This document shows positions 3,890 to 63,529 of a DNA stretch of 64,000 nt, one piece after another. The stretch lies in NCBI GenBank assembly GCA_031262295.1, contig JAISIA010000024.1, positions 10,659-74,658 on the forward strand, in the 5' to 3' direction. The position numbers and the translations under genes are program-made. Within the stretch, counting starts at the first letter, position 1, and every line of letters begins with the position of its first letter. Below the pieces are notes generated by a model, which saw only the letters and a program-made list of their open reading frames with translations, was not told the DNA's origin and made no database searches. This stretch comes from Bacteroidales bacterium (GTDB lineage: Bacteria; Bacteroidota; Bacteroidia; Bacteroidales; P3).

Positions 3890-5083
3890 ATGAATTTAAA
3901 AAACGTTTTTTCGTCAATATTTTTTCTAATAACTATAAGCCTTTTTTCTAATTCTATGTTTGCACAAGGTGGATTAGATAATGATAATCTTGGAGAGATA
4001 ATCCTTCGTCAGCAAATAGAAGATGGGGCAAGAATAATTAGTACAGGTGTTCCTGTTTTGCTTATTGCTCCTGATTCTCGTGCAGGATCAATGGGTGATA
4101 TTGGTGCTGCAACAACTCCTGATGTAAATTCCATACATTGGAATGCTGCAAAGTTGGCATTTATTGACAAAAAAGTTGGAATATCCCTAACCTACACTCC
4201 TTGGCTTAGAGATATTGTTGGTGATATTGACCTTTCTTATCTTTCAGCTTTCTATAAAGTAAATCAGCGTAGTGCAATAGGAGGCTCACTTACATATTTT
4301 TCTTTGGGAGGTATAGATTTTTATGATGTAAATGGAGAAAATAAAGGGAATTTTAAGCCTAATGAGTTTGCAATTGATTTAGCTTATTCAATGAAATTAA
4401 CAGATAATCTCTCTGCATCAGTGACAGGAAGGTATATTCGTTCAGATTTAACACAAGGACAAAATGTAGGAACTTCCACTTCTCACGCTGCAAACGCCTT
4501 TGGTGCAGATATAGGAATTTATTATCAAAAAGAATTATCCTCAGGTGAAAACGCTTCATCTTATGCCATAGGTTTGCAAATTGCAAATCTTGGTTCTAAA
4601 ATATCATATTCAGAATCTTTAGAGTCGGAATTTCAACCTGCCAACCTAAGAATTGGAGGAAGATATACTATGGACTTTAATCAATTCAACACTCTTTCCT
4701 TTATGGTTGATTTTAATAAGCTCTTAGTGCCAACACCTGCTGTTTATGATTCCGCAGGAAACATAGTTGCGGGAATGGATAATCATGTTAGTGTTATGCA
4801 AGGAGCAATACAATCCTTCTATGATGCTCCTAATGGATTTACAGAAGAGTTGCAAGAAATAAATATTTCTGCTGGTGCAGAATGGGTATATAATAAGTTC
4901 CTATTTCTAAGAGCAGGTTATTTCTATGAAAACAATAAAAAAGGAGGAAGAAGATATGTCACCTTTGGAGGAGGATTTAAATATAATGTATTGAATTTGG
5001 ACATTGCTTATTTAGTACCAACAGTAAATACAAACCACCCTTTAAAGAACACATTAAGAATATCTCTTAGCTTTGACATATAA
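3890..5083 (+). CDS. porV: type IX secretion outer-membrane protein PorV/LptO-like
   Basis: 397 aa with a signal peptide. The N-terminal motif STGVPVLLIAPDSRAGSMGDIGAATTPD and beta-barrel-like alternating sequence are characteristic of the PorV/PorQ family. Confidence 0.6.
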   Translation: MNLKNVFSSIFFLITISLFSNSMFAQGGLDNDNLGEIILRQQIEDGARIISTGVPVLLIAPDSRAGSMGDIGAATTPDVNSIHWNAAKLAFIDKKVGISLTYTPWLRDIVGDIDLSYLSAFYKVNQRSAIGGSLTYFSLGGIDFYDVNGENKGNFKPNEFAIDLAYSMKLTDNLSASVTGRYIRSDLTQGQNVGTSTSHAANAFGADIGIYYQKELSSGENASSYAIGLQIANLGSKISYSESLESEFQPANLRIGGRYTMDFNQFNTLSFMVDFNKLLVPTPAVYDSAGNIVAGMDNHVSVMQGAIQSFYDAPNGFTEELQEINISAGAEWVYNKFLFLRAGYFYENNKKGGRRYVTFGGGFKYNVLNLDIAYLVPTVNTNHPLKNTLRISLSFDI

Positions 5084-5085
5084 AA

Positions 5086-5565
5086 ATGAAAAATAAGGTA
5101 GGCATAGGTTATGATGTCCATAAATTAAAGGAAGGATTGCCCCTTTTTATTGGAGGAATACAAATTGAACATAACAAAGGAGCAGAGGGACATTCCGACA
5201 GTGATGTTCTCATTCATGCAATCATTGATGCTCTTTTGGGAGCTGCCTCTTTAAGAGATATAGGCTTTAATTACCCTGATAGTGATCAAAAGTATAAAGG
5301 AATAGATTCTAAAATACTTTTAAAAGATACCCTAAATAAAATAAAAGAAAAAGGCTTTTGTATAGAAAATATTGACTCTATTGTTGTTTTGCAAGAACCC
5401 AAAATAGGGATTTATATCCCTAAAATGCAAAGCACAATAGCCAATATTTTGAATATAGATGTTGATGATGTATCTATAAAGGCTACAACAACAGAACATC
5501 TTGGCTTTGTAGGGCAAAAAGAAGGCGTAGCCTCTTATGCTATTTGTATGCTTTCAAAGCCCTAA
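5086..5565 (+). CDS. ispF: 2-C-methyl-D-erythritol 2,4-cyclodiphosphate synthase
   Basis: 159 aa. Motifs GIGYDVHKL, GHSDSDVLIHAIIDALLGA and YKGIDSKILL. Lies 2 nt after porV. Confidence 0.9.
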   Translation: MKNKVGIGYDVHKLKEGLPLFIGGIQIEHNKGAEGHSDSDVLIHAIIDALLGAASLRDIGFNYPDSDQKYKGIDSKILLKDTLNKIKEKGFCIENIDSIVVLQEPKIGIYIPKMQSTIANILNIDVDDVSIKATTTEHLGFVGQKEGVASYAICMLSKP

Positions 5566-5603
5566 TTCTATAATTTCTATAAAATATTATAAAAATCCTG
5601 CAA

Positions 5604-6968
5604 CTATTGTTTTGCAAATTCCTTATAGAAATGAGGAATTGTTTCTATTCCTTTTAGGAATTGATTAACAGGATAGCTTTCATTTGGAGAATGTATCGCA
5701 TCTGCGGAAAGTCCAAAGCCCATAAGTATGGATTTTATTCCCAATATCCTTTCAAAACCTGCAACAATTGGAATTGAACCTCCACTTTTAGTTGGGATAG
5801 GACGTTTTCCATAAACTTTTTCGTATGCTTTCTCTGCTGCCTTATAAGCAGGCATATCAATAGGTGAAACATAAGGATAGCCACCATGCAAAGGTGTCAC
5901 CTTAACTCTTACACCTTTTGGAGCAAGACTAAGAAAATACTTTTCAAATCTTTCTGTTATTATATTGAAATCCTGATCTGGAACTAAGCGAAAGGAAATC
6001 TTTGCGTGTGCTGATGAAGGAATAATTGTTTTAGAACCCTCTCCCTGATAGCCTCCCCAAATTCCGCAAACATCCAATGAAGGTCTTATTCCTGTTCTTT
6101 CTATTGTTGAATATCCCTTTTCTCCAAATACATCATCAATATCAAGCTCTTTTTTGTAGTTTTCCTCATTGTATGGAGCCTGAGCCATTAGTTTTCTTTC
6201 CTCATCCGAAATAACTAAGACCTCCTTATAGAAATCAGGAACTGTAATATGATTATTTTCATCCATAAGTTTTGAAATCATACCACACAATACATTAATT
6301 GGATTAGCAACAGCACCTCCATAAATACCAGAATGAAGATCCCTATCTGCACCTATAACTTCTACTTCAACATAACCCAATCCTCTTAATCCAGTTGTTA
6401 TAGATGGTGTATCCTCTCCTATCATTGAAGTGTCGGAAACAAGTATTATATCTGCTTTTAAAAGGTCTTTGTTCTTTTGACAAAAAGCATATAAGTTTTC
6501 AGAGCCTATCTCCTCCTCTCCTTCTAACATAAACTTTACATTAGTTGGCAATTGGTTTGTCTTAACCATATATTCAAAAGCCTTAGCATGCATAAAGGAT
6601 TGTCCCTTGTCATCATCTGCACCACGAGCATAAATTTTTCCATCTTTTATAATAGCTTTGAACGGGTCAGAATGCCATTGCTCAATAGGATCAACAGGCA
6701 TTACATCATAATGTCCATAAACCAAGACTGTCTTTTTTGTTGGGTCAATAATCTTTTCTGCATATACAACACTATTACCCTTTGTTGGCATTATATTACA
6801 ATAATCTACTCCTGCATTTATAAGCAATTCCTTCCATTTTTGAGCACATCTTTCCATATCTTGCTTATGTTCGTGCATAGAAGATATAGAAGGAATACTT
6901 ATAAGAGAGAATAGCTCATCAAAAAATCTGTCCTTGTTTTGTTCAATGTATTGTTTTAATGTTTCCAT
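5604..6968 (-). CDS. M20-family dipeptidase
   Basis: 454 aa. Motifs YGHYDVMPVDP, ARGADDDKGQ and LEGEEEIGS, typical of M20/ArgE-DapE-type metallopeptidases. Confidence 0.8.
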   Translation of the reverse strand: METLKQYIEQNKDRFFDELFSLISIPSISSMHEHKQDMERCAQKWKELLINAGVDYCNIMPTKGNSVVYAEKIIDPTKKTVLVYGHYDVMPVDPIEQWHSDPFKAIIKDGKIYARGADDDKGQSFMHAKAFEYMVKTNQLPTNVKFMLEGEEEIGSENLYAFCQKNKDLLKADIILVSDTSMIGEDTPSITTGLRGLGYVEVEVIGADRDLHSGIYGGAVANPINVLCGMISKLMDENNHITVPDFYKEVLVISDEERKLMAQAPYNEENYKKELDIDDVFGEKGYSTIERTGIRPSLDVCGIWGGYQGEGSKTIIPSSAHAKISFRLVPDQDFNIITERFEKYFLSLAPKGVRVKVTPLHGGYPYVSPIDMPAYKAAEKAYEKVYGKRPIPTKSGGSIPIVAGFERILGIKSILMGFGLSADAIHSPNESYPVNQFLKGIETIPHFYKEFAKQ

Positions 6969-10036: not shown

Positions 10037-10275
10037 CCCGCAACGGGCATTTAATTGTCCTAACGGAAGTCTGCTTGTCGGCAACCGACTTTTAATTCGT
10101 CCTAACGGAAGTCTGGTTTTATATTTATAAGTTTATAATTCAACAAAAATATTTCTTCGTTTCAGCAAATTAAATCTTCGTTTTAAAAAATTATTTCTTC
10201 GTTTTAGTAAATTAAAACGCTGTTTTAGTAAATTATTTCTTCGTTTTAAAAAATTAAAACAGCGTTTTAGAAAAA
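10037..10275 (-). repeat. intergenic repeat locus A: 2 hairpin units + 6 phased 21-bp repeats
   Basis: Hairpin units lie at 10037-10074 and 10075-10116 (cccgcaacggg / gtcggcaaccgac, each followed by gtcctaacggaagtctg). Six exact 21-bp register units lie at 10150-10275 (tatttcttcgttttagtaaat / taaaacgctgttttagtaaat types). Orientation is opposite to loci C and G. Confidence 0.9.
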
Positions 10276-10310
10276 TAGGATTATGAAGAATAAATTTTAA
10301 AATTTTACAA

Positions 10311-11402
10311 TTAATTTATCTTTTTAATTTCTCCTGTTTGGCAATTAAAGAAAATATTCTTTTCTTTTATAATCATTGGAACGATTTCGCCGTATTGGTT
10401 AAGTGAAATATATTGAGAAAAGGTCTTTTTTGGCGTTTTAATCTCTACTTTTACCATTTGAGGCAGAGCATAATAAACTCCTTTTACTCCCTTATCCTTA
10501 TTTGTAGAATCTATATACTCGTTTTTTGTTAATTTTATTTGATCATTTGCCTTAAAACTCACCATAATTGGAATTGGACTACCTTGAAGTGGGATAACAA
10601 GAGCCTCTTTTTCTATTATAGGTTTTTGAGGCACTAAGGTAAATTGTCTTTTTTCTTTGCCTATTATGGTTTTTCCTGTAAATAAACTTACATATCCATC
10701 AATTATTTCGTCAATTTGTTTGTACATATAGTCTAATGTGGTGTTTATATATGTGCCTTCCAATTCTCCAGAAAGTATTTCCAACTGCTTTTCTCTTAAT
10801 TTTCCTATTTTTTCAACAACTTCCTCAGCAGATAAATTTAGTTTTTCCAATTGATTTTTTTCAATTAACACCTCTTCAAATATCTTTTTAGGGGTTAAAC
10901 TCTCTGTTTTTCCTTCTTGATTATTAATTTTTCCTCTGCATTTTCCTTTTTCACAGCTATGTTTTGAACAATTATCTCTTTCTTTTTGAAAACAAGGAGT
11001 TTTTTTACAATGTTTTTGATTATATATAATGCTTTTTATAATTCCATTATCGTCCTTATTGATAGAAAACTTATCATTATTGGCTATTATAACATATTGT
11101 TTTAGGGAGGTTTCTTCAATTTGGGTGTTAATCTTTATGTCCTCAACACTAAAAGTCTCTTCATTATTTGTTATAACATTTTTTAGTCCCAACAAATAAG
11201 CCTTATCGGCAAATATACCCTTTATCTTTTCTTCTTTTTTGTAAGTTACATCCAAAACAACTTCTGTGTTTTGAGGAAGGGAATAATGAATTATGGTTTT
11301 ATCTTTTACTTGTGGAATATCCTCTATTGGAAAGGATACAAAGGATGAGGAACATCCCAAAAAGAAAACCATAACAAACAAACTCAATACTAAATTTTTC
11401 AT
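10311..11402 (-). CDS. lipoprotein of unknown function with Cys/His-rich insert
   Basis: 363 aa. Lipobox FFLGCSSS. Cys/His cluster HCKKTPCFQKERDNCSKHSCEKGKC at residues 131-155. Confidence 0.55.
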   Translation of the reverse strand: MKNLVLSLFVMVFFLGCSSSFVSFPIEDIPQVKDKTIIHYSLPQNTEVVLDVTYKKEEKIKGIFADKAYLLGLKNVITNNEETFSVEDIKINTQIEETSLKQYVIIANNDKFSINKDDNGIIKSIIYNQKHCKKTPCFQKERDNCSKHSCEKGKCRGKINNQEGKTESLTPKKIFEEVLIEKNQLEKLNLSAEEVVEKIGKLREKQLEILSGELEGTYINTTLDYMYKQIDEIIDGYVSLFTGKTIIGKEKRQFTLVPQKPIIEKEALVIPLQGSPIPIMVSFKANDQIKLTKNEYIDSTNKDKGVKGVYYALPQMVKVEIKTPKKTFSQYISLNQYGEIVPMIIKEKNIFFNCQTGEIKKIN

Positions 11403-15106: not shown

Positions 15107-16003
15107 CTATATTATTTGCTTTTTTTTAAAATCTTTTTGACTTAAAAATACTCCAACTATAACAACTAACATCCCTATAACCTTATTTATTGTCATCTCT
15201 TCCTTACCCAAAACCCAAACAAGCAAAAGTGTCATTATTGGAATGGCATTAGTAAATATTGTAGTCTTTGCAACAGAGAGCTTCTTTGCTGAAAAAGAAT
15301 AGAAAATAAAAGCTATGGAAGAACAAAGTATTGCCAAAGCAAACAAAGGATAGAGAGTTGAAAAATTAAAAGGCAGACTTAGAAACGTTTTCCATTCAAA
15401 AATAAAGAATATAGGTAGATAATATATAGCTCCAATAATGTTTTGTGTTGTTGTAATTGTTATCGGTTCATATTTTTCTATAACCTTATATAGGGTAGCA
15501 CTATATCCAACAGATGCAATTACGGCAACAAACATCAAGGCTATACCCCTAAGATTAGCATTGAAGTTTTCTTTGCCCGAATAACTCATAACAAATAATC
15601 CAATAAAGGTTAGTACAACCCCAATTATTATCTGCCAACGCATCTTTTCTCCATGTATGAAATACAATCCAATAGGGACAAATATAGGAATAGTTGCAAT
15701 AATTATTGAACCCAAAGAGGCATCTACATATTTTAATCCCCAATTCTCCCCAAAAAAATATAGGAATGGCTCAAAAAAAGATAATAAAAGGAAAAGTGGA
15801 TAATCCTTCCTATCTATTCTATCTATCTTCTTAGTTGTATAGAATATTAAAAAAAGTAGAACAGCAGAGATAACGAGCCTTAGAGTTATTATTATAATAG
15901 GAGAAAAACCCACAGCTAAAAGCTCTTTGGTCCAAATAAAACTCATAGACCAAACAAACATAGATATTATTATAGCAATATATGCAGAGGTTTTATTTAA
16001 CAT
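15107..16003 (-). CDS. DMT-superfamily (EamA-like) transporter
   Basis: 298 aa, about 10 predicted TM helices in a two-EamA-repeat layout. A TACATTTG box lies on the minus strand at 16029-16036. Confidence 0.7.
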   Translation of the reverse strand: MLNKTSAYIAIIISMFVWSMSFIWTKELLAVGFSPIIIITLRLVISAVLLFLIFYTTKKIDRIDRKDYPLFLLLSFFEPFLYFFGENWGLKYVDASLGSIIIATIPIFVPIGLYFIHGEKMRWQIIIGVVLTFIGLFVMSYSGKENFNANLRGIALMFVAVIASVGYSATLYKVIEKYEPITITTTQNIIGAIYYLPIFFIFEWKTFLSLPFNFSTLYPLFALAILCSSIAFIFYSFSAKKLSVAKTTIFTNAIPIMTLLLVWVLGKEEMTINKVIGMLVVIVGVFLSQKDFKKKQII

Positions 16004-16098: not shown

Positions 16099-16584
16099 AT
16101 GACAAATATTGGTCTTTTATCCGACACCCACAATAGCCTTCCTAAGCAGGTTTATACATTTTTTAAGGATTGTGATATAGTTCTTTGTGCAGGAGATATT
16201 GGTTCTACTGACGTCCTTGATGAATTAAGAAATTTTAAAGAAACTATTGCCGTCTATGGAAATATAGATGGATATGATATAACCTGCCAATTAAAACGTA
16301 TAGAAACATTTTTTATAGAAAAAACAAAGATTACCCTAACCCATATTGGAGGTTATCCAAATCATTATGAAAAAGGCATAAAGGAAATTCTTATAAAAGA
16401 AAAACCAAATATATTTATCTCTGGTCATAGCCACATATTAAAGGTGATTTACGATAAAGAATTAGACCTACTACATCTTAATCCTGGCGCCTGTGGCAAC
16501 TACGGATTTCACAAACAAAGAACCCTTATACGCTTTTCAATAGATGAAAAAACACCAAAAAACTTAGAAATCCTCGAATTTTAG
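16099..16584 (+). CDS. YfcE/MJ0936-type metallophosphoesterase
   Basis: 161 aa. Motifs GLLSDTH, CAGDIGS, GNIDG and SGHSH. Confidence 0.8.
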   Translation: MTNIGLLSDTHNSLPKQVYTFFKDCDIVLCAGDIGSTDVLDELRNFKETIAVYGNIDGYDITCQLKRIETFFIEKTKITLTHIGGYPNHYEKGIKEILIKEKPNIFISGHSHILKVIYDKELDLLHLNPGACGNYGFHKQRTLIRFSIDEKTPKNLEILEF

Positions 16585-17150
16585 CCACCAAGTGGCATTT
16601 AGTTTCCTGACGGAACTTATGGTTTTATTTTTATAGAGGGAGGTATGATTAAATTTTTTCTATGCTTTATTTTTTGGTAAAATAAACCTCTATTTTAACA
16701 TCATTTTTTAAAAAAAACGTCAAAATTTAACATTTTTTAACATTTCATTCAATTTTTGTCGGCAACCGACCTTTGTTTTTCCTAACGGAATTTAATATTT
16801 TCAAATTATTAATTATCAATATAATCCAAACAGATTTTAATATGTTTTCCCCGATTTTTAATTAAAAAACACAAAACCTTATTTTTTCAGAAAAAAACGA
16901 AGAAAAATTCAAATAAAACGCTGTTTTAATTTTCTAAAACGAAGAAATAATTTTCTAAAACGCTGTTTTATTTTACTAAAACGAAGTTTTATTCAGCAAT
17001 AACATACTAATAATAAAGTTATTACATCTTCAATAAAATAAAAATAAGATTTAGGAAAAATATTAGGCTTTTGCCCTAAGAAGAAACTTTGTTTAGGCAA
17101 AGGTATAAAAAAGATTTGATATATGCAAATGGGGGTTTTTGGTTTTGAAA
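16584..17150. repeat. intergenic repeat locus B: truncated long composite copy
   Basis: Hairpin gccaccaagtggc 16584-16596 overlaps the stop codon of the upstream gene. TTTAACAT boxes lie at about 16726-16747 and a hairpin unit at 16758-16790. Five 21-bp repeats have CG at 16898, 16919, 16940, 16961 and 16982. The internal promoter is at 17098-17129. Collinear with 34560-34995. Confidence 0.85.
17098..17129 (-). promoter_or_regulatory. Bacteroidetes sigma-A type promoter inside repeat copy B
   Basis: Minus strand: TTTG (complement 17126-17129), 20 nt, TACCTTTG (complement 17098-17105). It points toward the 21-bp array at 16889-16993. Confidence 0.6.
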
Positions 17151-17430
17151 TATGTATTATAGTATTTGATTTAGAAAATATTAAAGATTTTAATAAAAGA
17201 AAAATTTAACAATCTCAGAAAATAAGTCTATATATATTAATCATATTTCCAACAATATATAATTTTTGCAATCAGTTTAAAAGAATGCAAAAAACAATTT
17301 CATTTTACAAATTTCCATATATTTTTCCCGTATTGAATCTATTATACAAATAAACAAAGAAATACAAAAAAAATTTTATAATACTATTAAAATAAAATTT
17401 ATATTATTTGCTTAATATATTCCATAAAGG

Positions 17431-33654: not shown

Positions 33655-34335
33655 ATGTCAAAACTTTATTTGGTTCCAACTCCAATAGGGAATTTGGAAG
33701 ATATTACTCTTCGTGCTATACGCATACTAAAAGAGGTTGATCTAATTCTTGCAGAGGATACACGCACTTCAAAGAAACTTCTAAACCATTACCAAATTAC
33801 AACCCCATTAGAGTCGTATCACCTATTCAATGAACACGAAAAAGTGGAAAGAATTGCAGAAAAAATAAGTGCAGGATATAAAGTTGCTCTTATAAGTGAT
33901 GCAGGAACGCCCGCTATTTCAGACCCCGGATACCTACTTGTTAGACAATGCGTAAAACATGATATAGTTGTGGAGACACTTCCCGGTGCAACAGCCCTTA
34001 TAGTTGCATTAGTTAATTCAGCAATACCTTGTAATAGTTTTTCTTTTGAAGGATTTCTTCCCACTAAAAAAGGGAGGAAAACCCTATTAGATAAACTAAA
34101 AACAGAAGAAAGAACTATGATATTCTACGAATCCCCTTTTAGATTAATAAAAACTCTAAAAGATTTTAGTGAATATTTTGGAAAAGATAGAAGGGCATCA
34201 GTAAGTAGGGAACTAACAAAACTATTTGAAGAAAACAAAAGAGGCACTTTGGAAGAATTAATAAACTATTTTGAAAATAAAACAATAAAAGGAGAAATAG
34301 TAATCATAGTTCAAGGGTCGGCAACCGACTTTTAA
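33655..34335 (+). CDS. rsmI: 16S rRNA (cytidine1402-2'-O)-methyltransferase
   Basis: 226 aa. Motifs LYLVPTPIGNLEDITLRA, EDTR and ISDAGTPAISDPG. The last 6 codons (SATDF*) are encoded by a hairpin repeat unit. Confidence 0.9.
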   Translation: MSKLYLVPTPIGNLEDITLRAIRILKEVDLILAEDTRTSKKLLNHYQITTPLESYHLFNEHEKVERIAEKISAGYKVALISDAGTPAISDPGYLLVRQCVKHDIVVETLPGATALIVALVNSAIPCNSFSFEGFLPTKKGRKTLLDKLKTEERTMIFYESPFRLIKTLKDFSEYFGKDRRASVSRELTKLFEENKRGTLEELINYFENKTIKGEIVIIVQGSATDF

Positions 34336-35333
34336 TTGTCCTTGCGGAAATATGGGTTTTTATAATTATATATTTATATACTTATATTTATAATTCAATA
34401 AAAAATTATTCTTGTTTAAAATTTCTAAAACAAGGATAATTTTCTATGTAAATACAATAATTACCTATCAATTCCACAAATTCAAGACCTAAAATGTTAT
34501 ATTTTCAAAAATATTTAACATTTCATACCCCATTTTTGACCCCATTTTTAACACTTTAGTAAATTTTTTCGCCAAAATTTAACATTTTTTAACATTTCAT
34601 TCAATTTTTGTCGGCAACCGACCTTTGTTTTTCCTAACGGAATTTCAGCTTTTCAAATTATTAATTATCAATATAATCCAAACAAATTTTAATATGTTTT
34701 CCCCGATTTTTAATTAAAAAACTCAAAACCTTATTTTTTCAGAAAAAAAACGAAGATTTCTCCAAATAAAACGCTGTTTTATTTTCCTAAAACGAAGAAA
34801 TAATTTTCTAAATCTTCGTTTTAATTTTCTAAAACGAAGATTTATTTAAAGATAACACACTAATAATAAGATTATTATAATGCAATCAAAAATAAAAATA
34901 AGTTGTGGGGAAATTTATATGTCTTTTGCCTTAAAAGAAACTTTGTTTGGCAAAGATACAAAAAAGATTTGATAAATGCAAACGGGAAATTTCAGTTTTG
35001 AAATTTGGAATTTAACATTTGAAGGAAAAAATGTTAAATATTTTTTGAAATTACATTTTTCATATATCAAAGCAATGGGATTCATCTCCTTGTAAAACTA
35101 ATATTATATACAAATAATGGTAATTTATATAAAGAAACAATACGGGAAAAGAGATAAACCCCCTTATTATTGGTTATTTTGTGTAATGCCCTTTGCGGAT
35201 TATCCCTACTGAATTATGACAAAATAAAGGTGGGTTTTGACTTCCGCAAGGACAATTAAATGCCTGTTGCAGGCTTGCCGACAACCAGACTTCCGTTAGG
35301 ACGACTAAATGCCACTTGGTGGCTTGCCGACAA
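34317..35333. repeat. intergenic repeat locus D: full-length long composite copy (about 1 kb, ORF-less)
   Basis: Components in order: hairpin unit 34317-34350, TTTAACATTT boxes 34514-34598, hairpin unit 34610-34645, 21-bp repeats 34741-34847, promoter 34951-34982 (minus), inverted repeat 35009-35039, and two terminal hairpin units 35239-35333. Collinear with the reverse complement of 46753-47600. Confidence 0.9.
34951..34982 (-). promoter_or_regulatory. Bacteroidetes sigma-A type promoter inside repeat copy D
   Basis: Minus strand: TTTG (complement 34979-34982), 20 nt, TATCTTTG (complement 34951-34958). It points toward the 21-bp array at 34741-34847. Confidence 0.6.
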
Positions 35334-35466
35334 ATAAATAATATTTCAATATAATGTCTCGTTGTTATAGTAAGAAAAATAAAACTTATGCCCTAAAAAT
35401 AACTTATATGGAGGCAAATTATGCAATATATAGAGCTATTTTTCAAAATATAAAATAATAAAATTT

Positions 35467-46712: not shown

Positions 46713-46751
46713 AGCGACTAAGAACAAAAAAACGTTCTTAGTCGCTTTTTT
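46713..46751 (+). terminator. rho-independent terminator of rpoD
   Basis: 13-bp stem agcgactaagaac / gttcttagtcgct, 8-nt loop, then TTTTTT. The repeat copy F starts 2 nt later. Confidence 0.8.
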
Positions 46752-46752
46752 A

Positions 46753-47690
46753 GTCGGCAACCGACCTTTAATTTTCCTAACGGAAGTCTGGTTGTCAGCA
46801 ATTGACCTTTATTTTGTCTAATTCAATAGGGATAATCCGCAAAGAAAATTACATAAAATAACCAATAGCAAAGGGATTTATCCCCTTGTAAGCATTGTTT
46901 CTTTATATAAATTACCAATATTTGCGTATAATATTATTTTTACAATGGGATGAACCCCATTGTTTTGATATATGAAAAATGTAATTTCAAAAAATATTTA
47001 ACATTTTTCCCTTCAAATGTTAAATGCCGAAACTCCCAATTTGGAAAATGCCATTTGCATATATCAAATCTTTTTTGTACCTTTGCCAAAACAAAGTTTC
47101 TTTTAAGGGCAAGAAAGCTCTAATATTTCCAAATTTCATTTTCCTTTATATTTACAAAATAATCACTTTATTATTAGTGTGTTATCTTTAAATAAATCTT
47201 CGTTTTAGAAAATTAAAACGCTGTTTTAGAAAATTATTTCTTCGTTTTAGCAAATTAAAACAGCGTTTTATTTTGGAAAAATAAGGTTTTTGTTTTTTTA
47301 ATTAAAAATCTGAAAAATTATATTGAAATTTACTTATATTATATTGAGGATTACTTGATTACTAATTTTAGAAAATTTTAACAAATTTTGAAGCTCTAAA
47401 ATTGAGAAATTGAGTGAAATGTTAAAAATTCGTCAAATTTTGTGTTTTTTATGAGGAAGAAATGTTAAAATTTGGTGATTTTAGGGTTGGAAATGTTAAA
47501 ATCTTTTGAAAAAATAATATTTTAGATCTTTAATTTGTGGAGTTGATTGATAATTATTGTATTTACATAAAAATTATCCTTGTTTGTCGGCAACCGACCT
47601 TTATTCAGCTATTGGATTGAAAAAAATATAAGAAATTAAAACAAAGTTTTAGAAAAATAAAACAGCAACTTATTTTTTTATCTTGCTATT
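46753..47690. repeat. intergenic repeat locus F: full-length long composite copy, inverted relative to D
   Basis: Components in order: hairpin units 46753-46806, inverted repeat 46996-47025, promoter 47054-47085 (plus), four 21-bp repeats 47193-47276, GAAATGTTAAAA boxes at 47416, 47459 and 47489, hairpin 47586-47598, and degenerate 21-mers at about 47633-47680. Confidence 0.9.
47054..47085 (+). promoter_or_regulatory. Bacteroidetes sigma-A type promoter inside repeat copy F
   Basis: TTTG (47054-47057), 20-nt spacer, TACCTTTG (47078-47085). This matches the -33 TTTG / -7 TAnnTTTG consensus. It points toward the 21-bp array. Confidence 0.6.
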
Positions 47691-63170: not shown

Positions 63171-63529
63171 CAATTAAACGAAGAAAAAAAGAAATAAAAC
63201 GAAGAAATAATTTTTTTAAACGAAGAAATAATTTACTAAAACGAAGAAATATTTTTCTAAAACGAAGATTTAATTTTATTGAAAAATAAACACATAAAAA
63301 TACTACCAGACTTCCGCAAGGACGAACAAAAGTCGGTTGCCGACAAACGAAGATTTAATTTTATTGAATTATAAACACATAAAAATACTACCAGACTTCC
63401 GCAAGGACAAATAAAGGTCGGTTGCCGACTACCAGACTTCCGTAAGGACGAATTAAAAGTCGGTTGCCGACAAAATCAGACTTTTGGTTAGGAAAAATTA
63501 AATGTCTATTGCCGACAATGTTAAAAATT
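63171..63529 (+). repeat. intergenic repeat locus G: 5 phased 21-bp repeats + 4 hairpin units (with an 85-bp tandem duplication)
   Basis: The 21-bp units span 63171-63277 (CG at 63179, 63200, 63221, 63242, 63263). Hairpin units lie at 63306-63344, 63391-63429, 63430-63471 and 63472-63516 (degenerate). An aatgttaaaaa box lies at 63517-63529. Confidence 0.9.

Follow-up and report, generated by a model that had tools for sequence, protein, structure and literature searches.

What purpose, if any, is served by the strictly phased 21-bp tandem repeats that recur between the genes of an otherwise ordinary Bacteroidales chromosome? The stretch of DNA analysed here (the window, that is, 64,000 nucleotides at positions 10,659–74,658 of contig JAISIA010000024.1 in assembly GCA_031262295.1) had been described in an earlier note as carrying about 30 such units, likened to cooperative binding sites of a dimeric protein as in iteron or partition-site arrays. 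Using Tandem Repeats Finder, we find period-21 (together with period-42) arrays at six loci (10145–10276, 16894–16991, 27813–27915, 34767–34844, 47193–47270 and 63172–63277; hereafter arrays A–F) and none elsewhere in the window, and when the six are laid out in a 21-bp register and oriented alike, phase is kept across four to six units in every one. We tentatively read these arrays, at a little less than an even chance, as phased platforms for a dyad-symmetric, cooperatively binding candidate protein, whose binding, cooperativity and effect we infer from the build of the arrays.

Each unit consists of a 15-bp site and a contiguous 6-bp A/T spacer (usually ATTTTC). The site in the window is the pseudo-dyad TAAAAC-N3-G(W3)TA, found both in asymmetric variants (TAAAACGAAGAAATA and TAAAACGAAGATTTA) and as true palindromes (TAAAACGCTGTTTTA and TAAAACAGCGTTTTA), and its positions +3 to +5 (counted from the centre) are A or T without exception in the window’s own units. 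The site pattern TAAAACNNNGWWWTA gives 37 strand-matches (26 distinct sites) in the window against 0.56 expected from shuffled sequence, so the six phased arrays are real and not a product of chance; the two-unit pattern gives 16 matches against 0 expected. A scan of the window with a position weight matrix returns 28 matches of at least 12 bits, of which 26 lie inside arrays, and the two outside are the same as the chance expectation (2.25 in shuffles). In this window, the 15-bp site occurs practically as arrays only. The spacing from centre to centre is 21 bp in 19 cases, 22 bp in one and 20 bp in none, and the figure of about 30 sites in 64 kb holds when degenerate in-phase units are counted.

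All six window arrays are intergenic, A, B and C lying between convergent genes and D, E and F between co-directional genes. Array A (10145..10276, minus strand) has six in-phase units, the outermost of which are degenerate (TGAAACGAAGAAATA); array B (16891..16995, plus) has five, with GAAG-type units alternating with palindromic GCT-type units; array C (27812..27916, plus) has five; array D (34744..34848, plus) has five, including a reverse-oriented unit at 34809–34823; array E (47188..47272, minus) has four; and array F (63172..63276, plus) has five, all GAAG-type. Two smaller features share this build, namely a palindromic site that stands alone, TAAAACAAAGTTTTA, apart from a degenerate neighbour at a distance of 21 bp (47637..47672), and a similar two-unit mini-array at 34405–34440. 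These details bear out the earlier description in outline and amend it in several particulars. The positions given for the core CG are correct for arrays B, C and F save for 27882, which reads CC; the units at 10150–10275, described as perfect 21-mers, are in phase but fall short of perfect copies (matches of 73% at period 21 and of 81% at period 42); and the alternation of GAAG and GCT cores is confined to arrays A, B and E. The perfect dyad of array D is confirmed, with a length of 15 nt (34809–34823 and 34830–34844, 100% complementary, arms 6 nt apart) instead of 13. The unit taken there to be inverted does keep the register, but its spacer orientation is unchanged and it is orthologous to palindromic units in other copies of the element that carries it, and it is better understood as a palindrome whose other half has degraded than as a physical flip. 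All units are best seen as one palindrome, either half of which is free to relax to TAWWWC.

A species survey, in which one genome per species was searched with the two-unit pattern, returned at least 63 loci (numbered L001 and so on, as are contigs from other assemblies). Most listed loci come from uncultured low-GC gut Bacteroidales, including Ca. Onthomorpha, Ca. Scybalousia, many rumen and hindgut ‘RGIG’ metagenome-assembled genomes (MAGs), MAG69 and UBA3388. The 21-bp phase is kept in these other species: among the matches listed, half-site-defined centre spacings are 21 bp in 132 cases, 20 bp in one and 22 bp in one. Among 151 units from other MAGs, anchored only on TAAAAC (the search pattern itself forced about 60 of them), conservation extends to the mirror positions (G at +2 in 92%, T at +6 in 75% and A at +7 in 90%), and A or T stands at positions +3 to +5 in 86–97% per position. 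As a control, we used 80 metagenome loci picked by three phased TAAAAC alone; these are mostly telomere-like heptamer satellites and coding repeats, and the dyad is absent in 75 of them. The dyad is therefore a property of the array family and not of the TAAAAC anchor. Adjacent asymmetric units share the same orientation in 80 cases and are opposed in 19, with the lattice kept in all.

The arrays are also old. Pairs of genomes carry them in the same intergenic gap at flank identities of 72% (L001/L017), 82% (L052/L060), 88% (L011/L027), 92% (L028/L040) and 95% (L009/L018), and such orthologous arrays differ in unit number (5 versus about 14, 5 versus 4, and 3 versus 4) and in which units are intact. 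Unit subtype is genome-specific across independent arrays: GAA and GCT centres occur in the window and in termite-gut contigs, GAA-GAGTTA and GCC in Scybalousia, AAA-GAAATA in RGIG7394 and Onthomorpha, and GCC/GGC palindromes in RGIG9295 and MAG69. Listed loci outside the termite-gut lineage have neither the hairpin units, similar to repetitive extragenic palindromic (REP) sequences, nor the flanks that accompany the window arrays, yet retain motif and lattice. The array is thus the old, shared component and the surrounding mosaic a lineage-specific elaboration, because REP-like units and the motif TTTAACATTT occur only in the window and in termite-gut contigs among the matches listed. A metagenome protein scan with the window loci gave no relatives, and the syntenic loci obtained from the protein database, at about 45% identity, were too far removed to serve as orthologous loci of the window.

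These observations suggest the following mechanism. An array would be a helically phased platform of 3–14 operator-like sites for a sequence-specific, dyad-symmetric DNA-binding protein, each site being the 15-bp pseudo-palindrome TAWWWC-N3-GWWWTA with centres exactly 21 bp (two turns) apart. Dimers, in contact with one another, would bind along one helical face, so that the array, and not the single site, would presumably be the working unit. Each dimer may read the major groove at fixed positions and a narrow minor groove between them. As judged from the alignments, the conserved mirror positions carry the signature of dimer recognition, and the A/T-rich inner positions +3 to +5 suggest minor-groove or shape readout; to the same signature would belong the indifference to unit orientation, the indel-free two-turn lattice in homopolymer-rich DNA, and the turnover of units while the array stays at orthologous sites. 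As in operator arrays generally, conserved positions are dyad-symmetric and helical spacing is fixed. The dimeric, cooperative binding that the earlier note had supposed is accordingly well matched by the dyad and by the same-face spacing, which fit all measurements, although binding itself is a deduction. Genome-specific subtypes are the outcome expected from co-evolution with one trans factor. Such a factor would act genome-wide, in the manner of a nucleoid-associated protein, an AbrB-kind protein or a global regulator rather than a one-regulon repressor, given that the sites exist in arrays only and beside unrelated housekeeping genes. Bound protein would modulate or insulate neighbouring promoters, as we propose because arrays often abut or overlap −33/−7 promoter elements. 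In the window lineage, the arrays would also have been copied round the chromosome within mosaic repeats (that is, leader, array, tail, REP-like hairpins and an element of about 800 bp).

The positions of the arrays relative to genes bear on this proposal. Of about 35 listed arrays with both neighbours called, 9 lie between convergent, 6 between divergent and about 20 between co-directional genes, which is roughly what intergenic regions offer. Some span exactly the gap between a stop codon and the next ATG (L060, L052 and L013); others are flanked by a terminator hairpin and a promoter (L028/L040) or by two divergent promoters (L057, L039 and L026). Among the matches listed, the centre of the last site is 6 bp from the TAnnTTTG box in five cases and 27–34 bp from it in ten, and in L057 the spacer TTTTG itself is the −33 element. 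Genes with their 5′ ends toward arrays have housekeeping roles and are unrelated to one another (pgk, asd, nqrA, purE, htpG and others). Pfam searches of 32 genes with array-facing 5′ ends gave no enrichment and no recurrent DNA-binding gene, and those of 108 small open reading frames within 600 bp of arrays likewise no recurrent DNA-binding gene; a regulon or linked regulator was rejected on the basis of these searches.

Several points weigh against the idea of a protein platform. Neither the window nor the 63 other loci listed have a DNA-binding gene linked to the arrays. In the window, three of six arrays are flanked by convergent genes and have no promoter to regulate, and the window arrays share leader or tail sequences and travel with REP-like units, as dispersed repeats do. 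Concerted evolution of a repeat family accounts equally well for the genome-specific central triplets, which a protein would not have to read. Furthermore, the syntenic DUF4831-locus regions of relatives (12–21 kb, about 45% protein identity) have no TAAAAC arrays, so arrays are dispensable, at least at those loci.

Beyond what the earlier note had described, the arrays are embedded in larger mosaic repeats, and this makes a serious rival of the view, which we consider somewhat unlikely, that they make up the minisatellite core of a mosaic repeat that is non-autonomous, selfish or neutral and without host function, similar to REP sequences and bacterial interspersed mosaic elements (BIMEs) or to BrickBuilt, a transposable element of the miniature inverted-repeat kind (MITE). 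Such a repeat would have spread by transposition, recombination or gene conversion, its uniformity would reflect common descent and concerted evolution, and its recogniser would be at most a transposase or recombinase. The make-up of the mosaic supports this in several ways. In array orientation, arrays A, C and F are followed by a linker of 30–55 bp and then by one to four tandem REP-like units of 42–49 bp (two after array A, and one 55 bp beyond array C). The unit is CCAGACTTCCG-YWA-GGAC-RA-WWWAAA plus a 5-bp stem with a TTG loop, the constant box of the family being GACTTCCG-YWA-GGAC; there are 12 such hairpins, and four stem variants (GTCGG/CCGAC, GCCAC/GTGGC, GCCTG/CAGGC and GCCCG/CGGGT) retain pairing. 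Hairpins with compensatory stems, the hallmark of REP and BIME sequences, are thus found in the 42–49-bp units and not in the 21-bp arrays. Tandem REP-like units lie 3′ of array F (63300..63520, plus), and other copies are at 10040–10117 (minus), 16584–16620, 16753–16790 (minus), 27970–28010 (plus), 34317–34349 (minus), 34607–34642 (minus), 35239–35334 (plus), 46749–46818 (minus) and 47577–47598; most abut gene 3′ ends, and one supplies a stop codon (34317–34335). In array F, an 85-bp tandem repeat (63260–63429, 94% identity) consists of the last unit, the linker and a REP unit, and is direct evidence that array edges and REP units were copied together.

Arrays B, D and E, in turn, lie within three copies, 77–86% identical, of a large non-coding element of about 800 bp. 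Copy D (34428..35231, plus), which is bounded by REP-like units and has the mini-array mentioned above at its edge, contains a leader, the array, a tail, a promoter and TTTAACATTT motifs, and shares 77.5% identity with copy E, 86% with copy B and 84% with L033, which is from another MAG. Copy E (46805..47585, minus) is inverted relative to D, and copy B (16692..17191, plus) is truncated on the promoter-distal side; homologues outside the window are found in L033 (712–1556), L003 and L012. The element has no open reading frame, Rfam match or RNA covariation. Its promoter has the full Bacteroidetes consensus (TTTG-N20-TAtcTTTG in D at 34951..34982, minus; equivalents, TTTG-N20-TAnnTTTG, at 17098–17129, minus, in B and 47054–47085, plus, in E) and is directed into the array from about 110 bp away; in L033 both boxes are retained and the spacer is changed. 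The leader AAAACCTTATTTTTYCA is common to arrays B, D and E and, more weakly, F, and a tail is common to A and F. Copies D and E also form inverted repeats around 12 kb that includes rpoD and could mediate a chromosomal inversion.

A 23-nt inverted repeat in copy D (ATTTTCAAAAATATTTAACATTT, left arm 34501..34523, partner arm 35029–35051) encloses a segment of about 505 bp with array D and the promoter, and the pair (23–24 nt) is kept in L033 (928–951 and 1453–1476). Enclosure of a promoter segment by an inverted repeat, seen in element D and L033 only, is reminiscent of Bacteroidales invertons; unlike invertons, however, the six sequenced copies are all collinear and no invertase gene is nearby, and the likeness is limited to the 800-bp element rather than extending to the arrays in general. 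This inverted repeat is built on TTTAACATTT and could be a putative binding site instead. The TTTAACATTT motif has 13 copies in the window against 1.95 expected (16726–16745, 27684, 34514–34597, 35011–35038, 46997–47024 and 47417–47500), all in or beside array-bearing regions and sometimes as a 10-bp tandem or as a local palindrome TTTAACATTT-N9-AAATGTTAAA, and may be the candidate site of a second DNA-binding factor.

Also in keeping with a selfish or neutral repeat are the 3′ ends that make up 9 of the 12 gene ends facing window arrays and the three arrays between convergent genes, convergent-gene gaps being the classic safe harbour of REP and MITE elements. The same holds for subtypes that are genome-specific even at the central triplet, for copy numbers that vary among orthologous arrays, for sites that exist as arrays only and for the breaking of assemblies within arrays. 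In the other assembly of the organism (Logan SRR14710920), which is 100% identical to the window, one contig (window 37257–46777) ends beside element E and another ends at about 63224, inside array F; array repeats, that is, break short-read assemblies. Against this stand the genes and ends that were looked for and not found: within the 64-kb window there is no transposase, integrase, recombinase, rep, par or cas gene and no REP-associated (RAYT, Y1/HUH) transposase, and elements D, E and L033 have no terminal inverted repeat (TIR) or target-site duplication (TSD), their ends being REP-like or TAAAAC units. Motif and lattice persist beyond the termite-gut lineage without REP units or shared flanks, and arrays stay at orthologous positions at a flank identity of only 72%. 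Moreover, conservation depends on the position, with C/G at ±2 and TA at ±6/7 being fixed and the rest free, whereas recent copying would leave it uniform; the A/T runs are nearly free of ±1-bp indels; and arrays also occur in divergent promoter regions or fill intercistronic gaps exactly. The two readings, as a dispersed repeat and as a protein platform, are not mutually exclusive, because REPs are both dispersed repeats and protein-bound.

Comparison with known repeat families leads to a similar picture. BIMEs of enterobacteria are mosaics of REP hairpins and other motifs, some bound by IHF or gyrase. The present system resembles them in being high-copy and strictly intergenic, often at gene 3′ ends or in convergent gaps, with a species-specific consensus, and in combining hairpin units that have compensatory stem variants with a second motif class. 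It differs in that the second motif is a phased tandem dyad array and not a single IHF site, in that the array lacks hairpins in most other species, in the missing RAYT gene of the window and in the lack of sequence similarity. A precedent within the Bacteroidales for the order of leader, minisatellite and tail is BrickBuilt of Porphyromonas gingivalis, which has a 23-nt minisatellite unit (AGAYCATARTATCCTCTCRTRTG), insertion-sequence-type TIRs (GAGACCTTTGCA) and about 20 copies in a genome, is restricted to a single species and always intergenic, and has promoter activity inside the element (PMC4596501). The arrays described here share with it the order, the intergenic location, the spacer-less tandem of about two turns, the common leader and tail and an internal promoter (predicted here). 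The BrickBuilt unit and TIR are, however, unrelated to TCTAAAACGAAGAAATAATTT here, and the present arrays have no TIR or TSD, occur in many genera and are made of dyad units on a strict 21-bp lattice. Mycobacterial interspersed repetitive units (MIRUs) are 40–100 bp long with small open reading frames, and pneumococcal BOX modules are 45–59 bp long and fold as RNA. The arrays resemble both in that tandem units, variable in number, occupy the intergenic or intercistronic gaps of housekeeping operons, and differ in their 21-bp units with stops in several frames and in having no shared fold. Unit symmetry, strict phasing and cross-genus conservation thus set the arrays apart from BIME, BrickBuilt, MIRU and BOX. 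Even if they prove to be selfish repeats, they would represent a new interspersed repeat family common to several genera, would explain why termite-gut and rumen metagenomes have broken assemblies and mis-binned contigs, and would be a source of strain markers of the variable-number tandem-repeat type.

A bolder version of the platform reading, to which we give a low probability and which we regard as doubtful, is that of a chromatin-like system in uncultured low-GC gut Bacteroidales, in which a dimeric protein would polymerise on two-turn lattices of 3–14 pseudo-palindromic sites at many intergenic positions and tune or insulate promoters. Bearing on this are intergenic arrays of the same build (that is, a palindrome or near-palindrome plus a 6–7-bp spacer in 3–5 copies with a 22-bp period) that use other palindromes in related Bacteroidales. 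In the syntenic DUF4831-locus regions mentioned above, L066 has three copies of the palindrome TATGTTGSCAACATA plus 7 bp at 22-bp spacing (15869–15931) and L065 about five copies of a 22-mer (10382–10498), and L051 has a different 22-bp repeat (about 6300–6480) at the site where the orthologous L026 and L004 have a TAAAAC array. A Tandem Repeats Finder survey also found, in L021, four copies at 22 bp of a 16-bp palindrome TCCAAYRGCRTTGGA(A) plus 6 bp (5596–5680); this array directly adjoins a TAAAAC unit, and 127 bp from the array is a divergent gene for a 69-amino-acid MazE/AbrB-type DNA-binding protein (5260–5469, minus; Pfam E = 6e-10). Protein and array possibly form a cognate pair of a sister array family. 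The sister arrays count in favour of the platform reading, and in its chromatin-like version, the 22-bp palindromes, one of them beside a MazE/AbrB-type gene, would make protein and arrays a rapidly co-evolving family.

Two-turn spacing has precedents among operators. ArgR binds ARG boxes (18 + 3 bp), OxyR and LysR 15-bp dyads about 22 bp apart and AraC the I1-I2 sites (21 bp), and the heptad arrays of the omega repressor tolerate direct and inverted units in register; systems of these types have 2–4 sites at the few promoters of one regulon. The present arrays are alike in having dyad or near-dyad sites two turns apart, with subunits that would lie on one face, and unlike in having 3–14 sites, no single-site operators, unrelated neighbours and many arrays away from promoters. 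Little is known of nucleoid-associated proteins and global regulators in gut Bacteroidales, and to our knowledge no xenogeneic silencer or H-NS-like organiser is known in Bacteroidota. A protein that assembled on these lattices would be a global organiser or regulator of DNA specific to this lineage of gut Bacteroidales, and the chromatin-like system, if true, would be a candidate xenogeneic silencer or H-NS-like organiser for Bacteroidota. The 15-bp site and its genome-specific subtypes offer a bait for the protein and a co-evolution signal for comparative genomics.

Alternatively, the arrays may act in cis through DNA shape or promoter architecture with no dedicated protein, their phased A/T tracts causing curvature or making UP-element-like contacts with RNA polymerase and their spacers donating the −33 TTTG; this we judge improbable. 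The A/T tracts do lie about 10.5 bp apart within each unit, and all six arrays are above average in predicted curvature, with maxima at the 91st–97th percentile of the window in our own implementation of the Bolshoy–Trifonov wedge model. About 15 arrays abut −33/−7 boxes, the L057 spacer that doubles as a −33 element fits well, and orientation-independence would be natural for curvature. However, the predicted curvature is only moderate (for which reason strong intrinsic curvature was rejected) and no array interior ranks with the highest peaks; curvature leaves unexplained the nearly invariant C at −2, G at +2 and outer TA; and half of the window arrays are not beside a promoter that needs them.

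Even less credit is due to the possibility that the arrays work as RNA, as non-coding transcript motifs, A-rich leaders, intercistronic translation enhancers or hairpin terminators. A full-consensus promoter does point into arrays B, D and E, its boxes kept in another species despite the change of spacer; arrays of other MAGs often fill co-directional gaps, with about 11 in the A-rich sense against 4 antisense, a bias that is not significant (about P = 0.06, one-sided); and convergent unit pairs form 15-bp hairpins followed by T runs. Yet there is no Rfam match at gathering or E-value thresholds, and RNAalifold on six element copies gives a positive covariation term with compensatory pairs at 1 of 52. 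Single-strand folding z-scores range from −3.9 (D and E) through −2.3 (B), −1.0 (A) and +0.4 (C) to +2.0 (F), so structure is not shared; given this inconsistency, a hairpin, cruciform or terminator was rejected as a common property. Units, and arrays relative to genes, occur in both orientations, which alters the RNA sequence, and the mirror positions of GAAG-type units give no stable RNA helix. Explanations based on structure thus fail, with folding inconsistent among arrays and no RNA covariation, which counts in favour of the platform reading.

The remaining proposal, that the arrays are true plasmid or phage iterons or partition centromeres, integrated or titrating Rep or Par, is close to refuted: unit length, direct tandem layout in four to six units per window array and helical two-turn phasing do match iteron and parC-type arrays, and TTATCC-like DnaA-box fragments lie at both ends of the 800-bp element, but there is no rep or par gene in the 64 kb, no family member in viral, plasmid or phage records, and there are six arrays per 64 kb and dozens of chromosomal loci dispersed over many chromosomes beside housekeeping genes. 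Iterons and type Ib/II centromeres (for example, the 20-bp repeats of pSK41 parC, R1 parC and F sopC) are phased tandem repeats of 17–22 bp that dimers bind cooperatively, the mode of action proposed here as well, and that adjoin a rep or par gene at one or few loci per replicon, whereas no par gene was found beside the six window arrays or about 45 arrays of other loci. The two-unit pattern has 0 matches in 2.9 million viral contigs of IMG/VR, a relaxed pattern gives 12 matches there with no array-family member among them, and neither the 800-bp element nor array C gave a relevant blastn match in PLSDB or INPHARED. The family membership that the earlier note had suggested is therefore not borne out, and no plasmid or phage in these three collections carries the same repeats beside a rep, par or regulator gene.

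Other candidates were rejected more directly. The units are not a CRISPR array, being contiguous with a constant 6-bp A/T spacer and having no cas genes in the window. By eye, we also rejected LytTR 9-mer repeats, parS, DnaA boxes, ECF (extracytoplasmic function) or sigma-54 promoters, Tn7- or Mu-type transposon ends and, as the period-21 units carry stop codons in several frames, coding heptad repeats. In the literature, we found no paper with the 15-mers or describing such arrays.

Bacteroidales-type arrays also turned up in unexpected bins. In sample Hm464, the short contigs L003, L014 and L033 (bin of the archaeon Ca. Methanoflexus mossambicus, a termite-gut methanogen) and L012 (bin Endomicrobium sp.) carry them, and these contigs are probably mis-binned, repeat-bounded Bacteroidales DNA, because the window’s large element is present on Hm464 contigs (84–88% identity). 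A look-up of the M23 peptidase for strain polymorphism gave no match.

The window itself has a G+C content of 30% and the gene content of an ordinary Bacteroidales chromosome, with genes for a HydG-like radical-SAM protein, PorV (3890–5083), RuvB, GlmS, TrpRS, RpoD, MutS, exopolysaccharide glycosyltransferases and cargo of the type IX secretion system. Small proteins without a known family are encoded beside arrays A and C and are unrelated to each other. A 1,419-amino-acid protein (21416–25675) has several fn3 domains, internal DNA repeats and a C-terminal sorting domain of the type IX secretion system. An AbiLi-like ATPase gene (25846–27195; PADLOC E = 1e-89; Pfam AAA_21) overlaps the gene for a 152-amino-acid partner without a family match (27155–27613), and the two probably form an AbiL-type defence pair directly upstream of array C.

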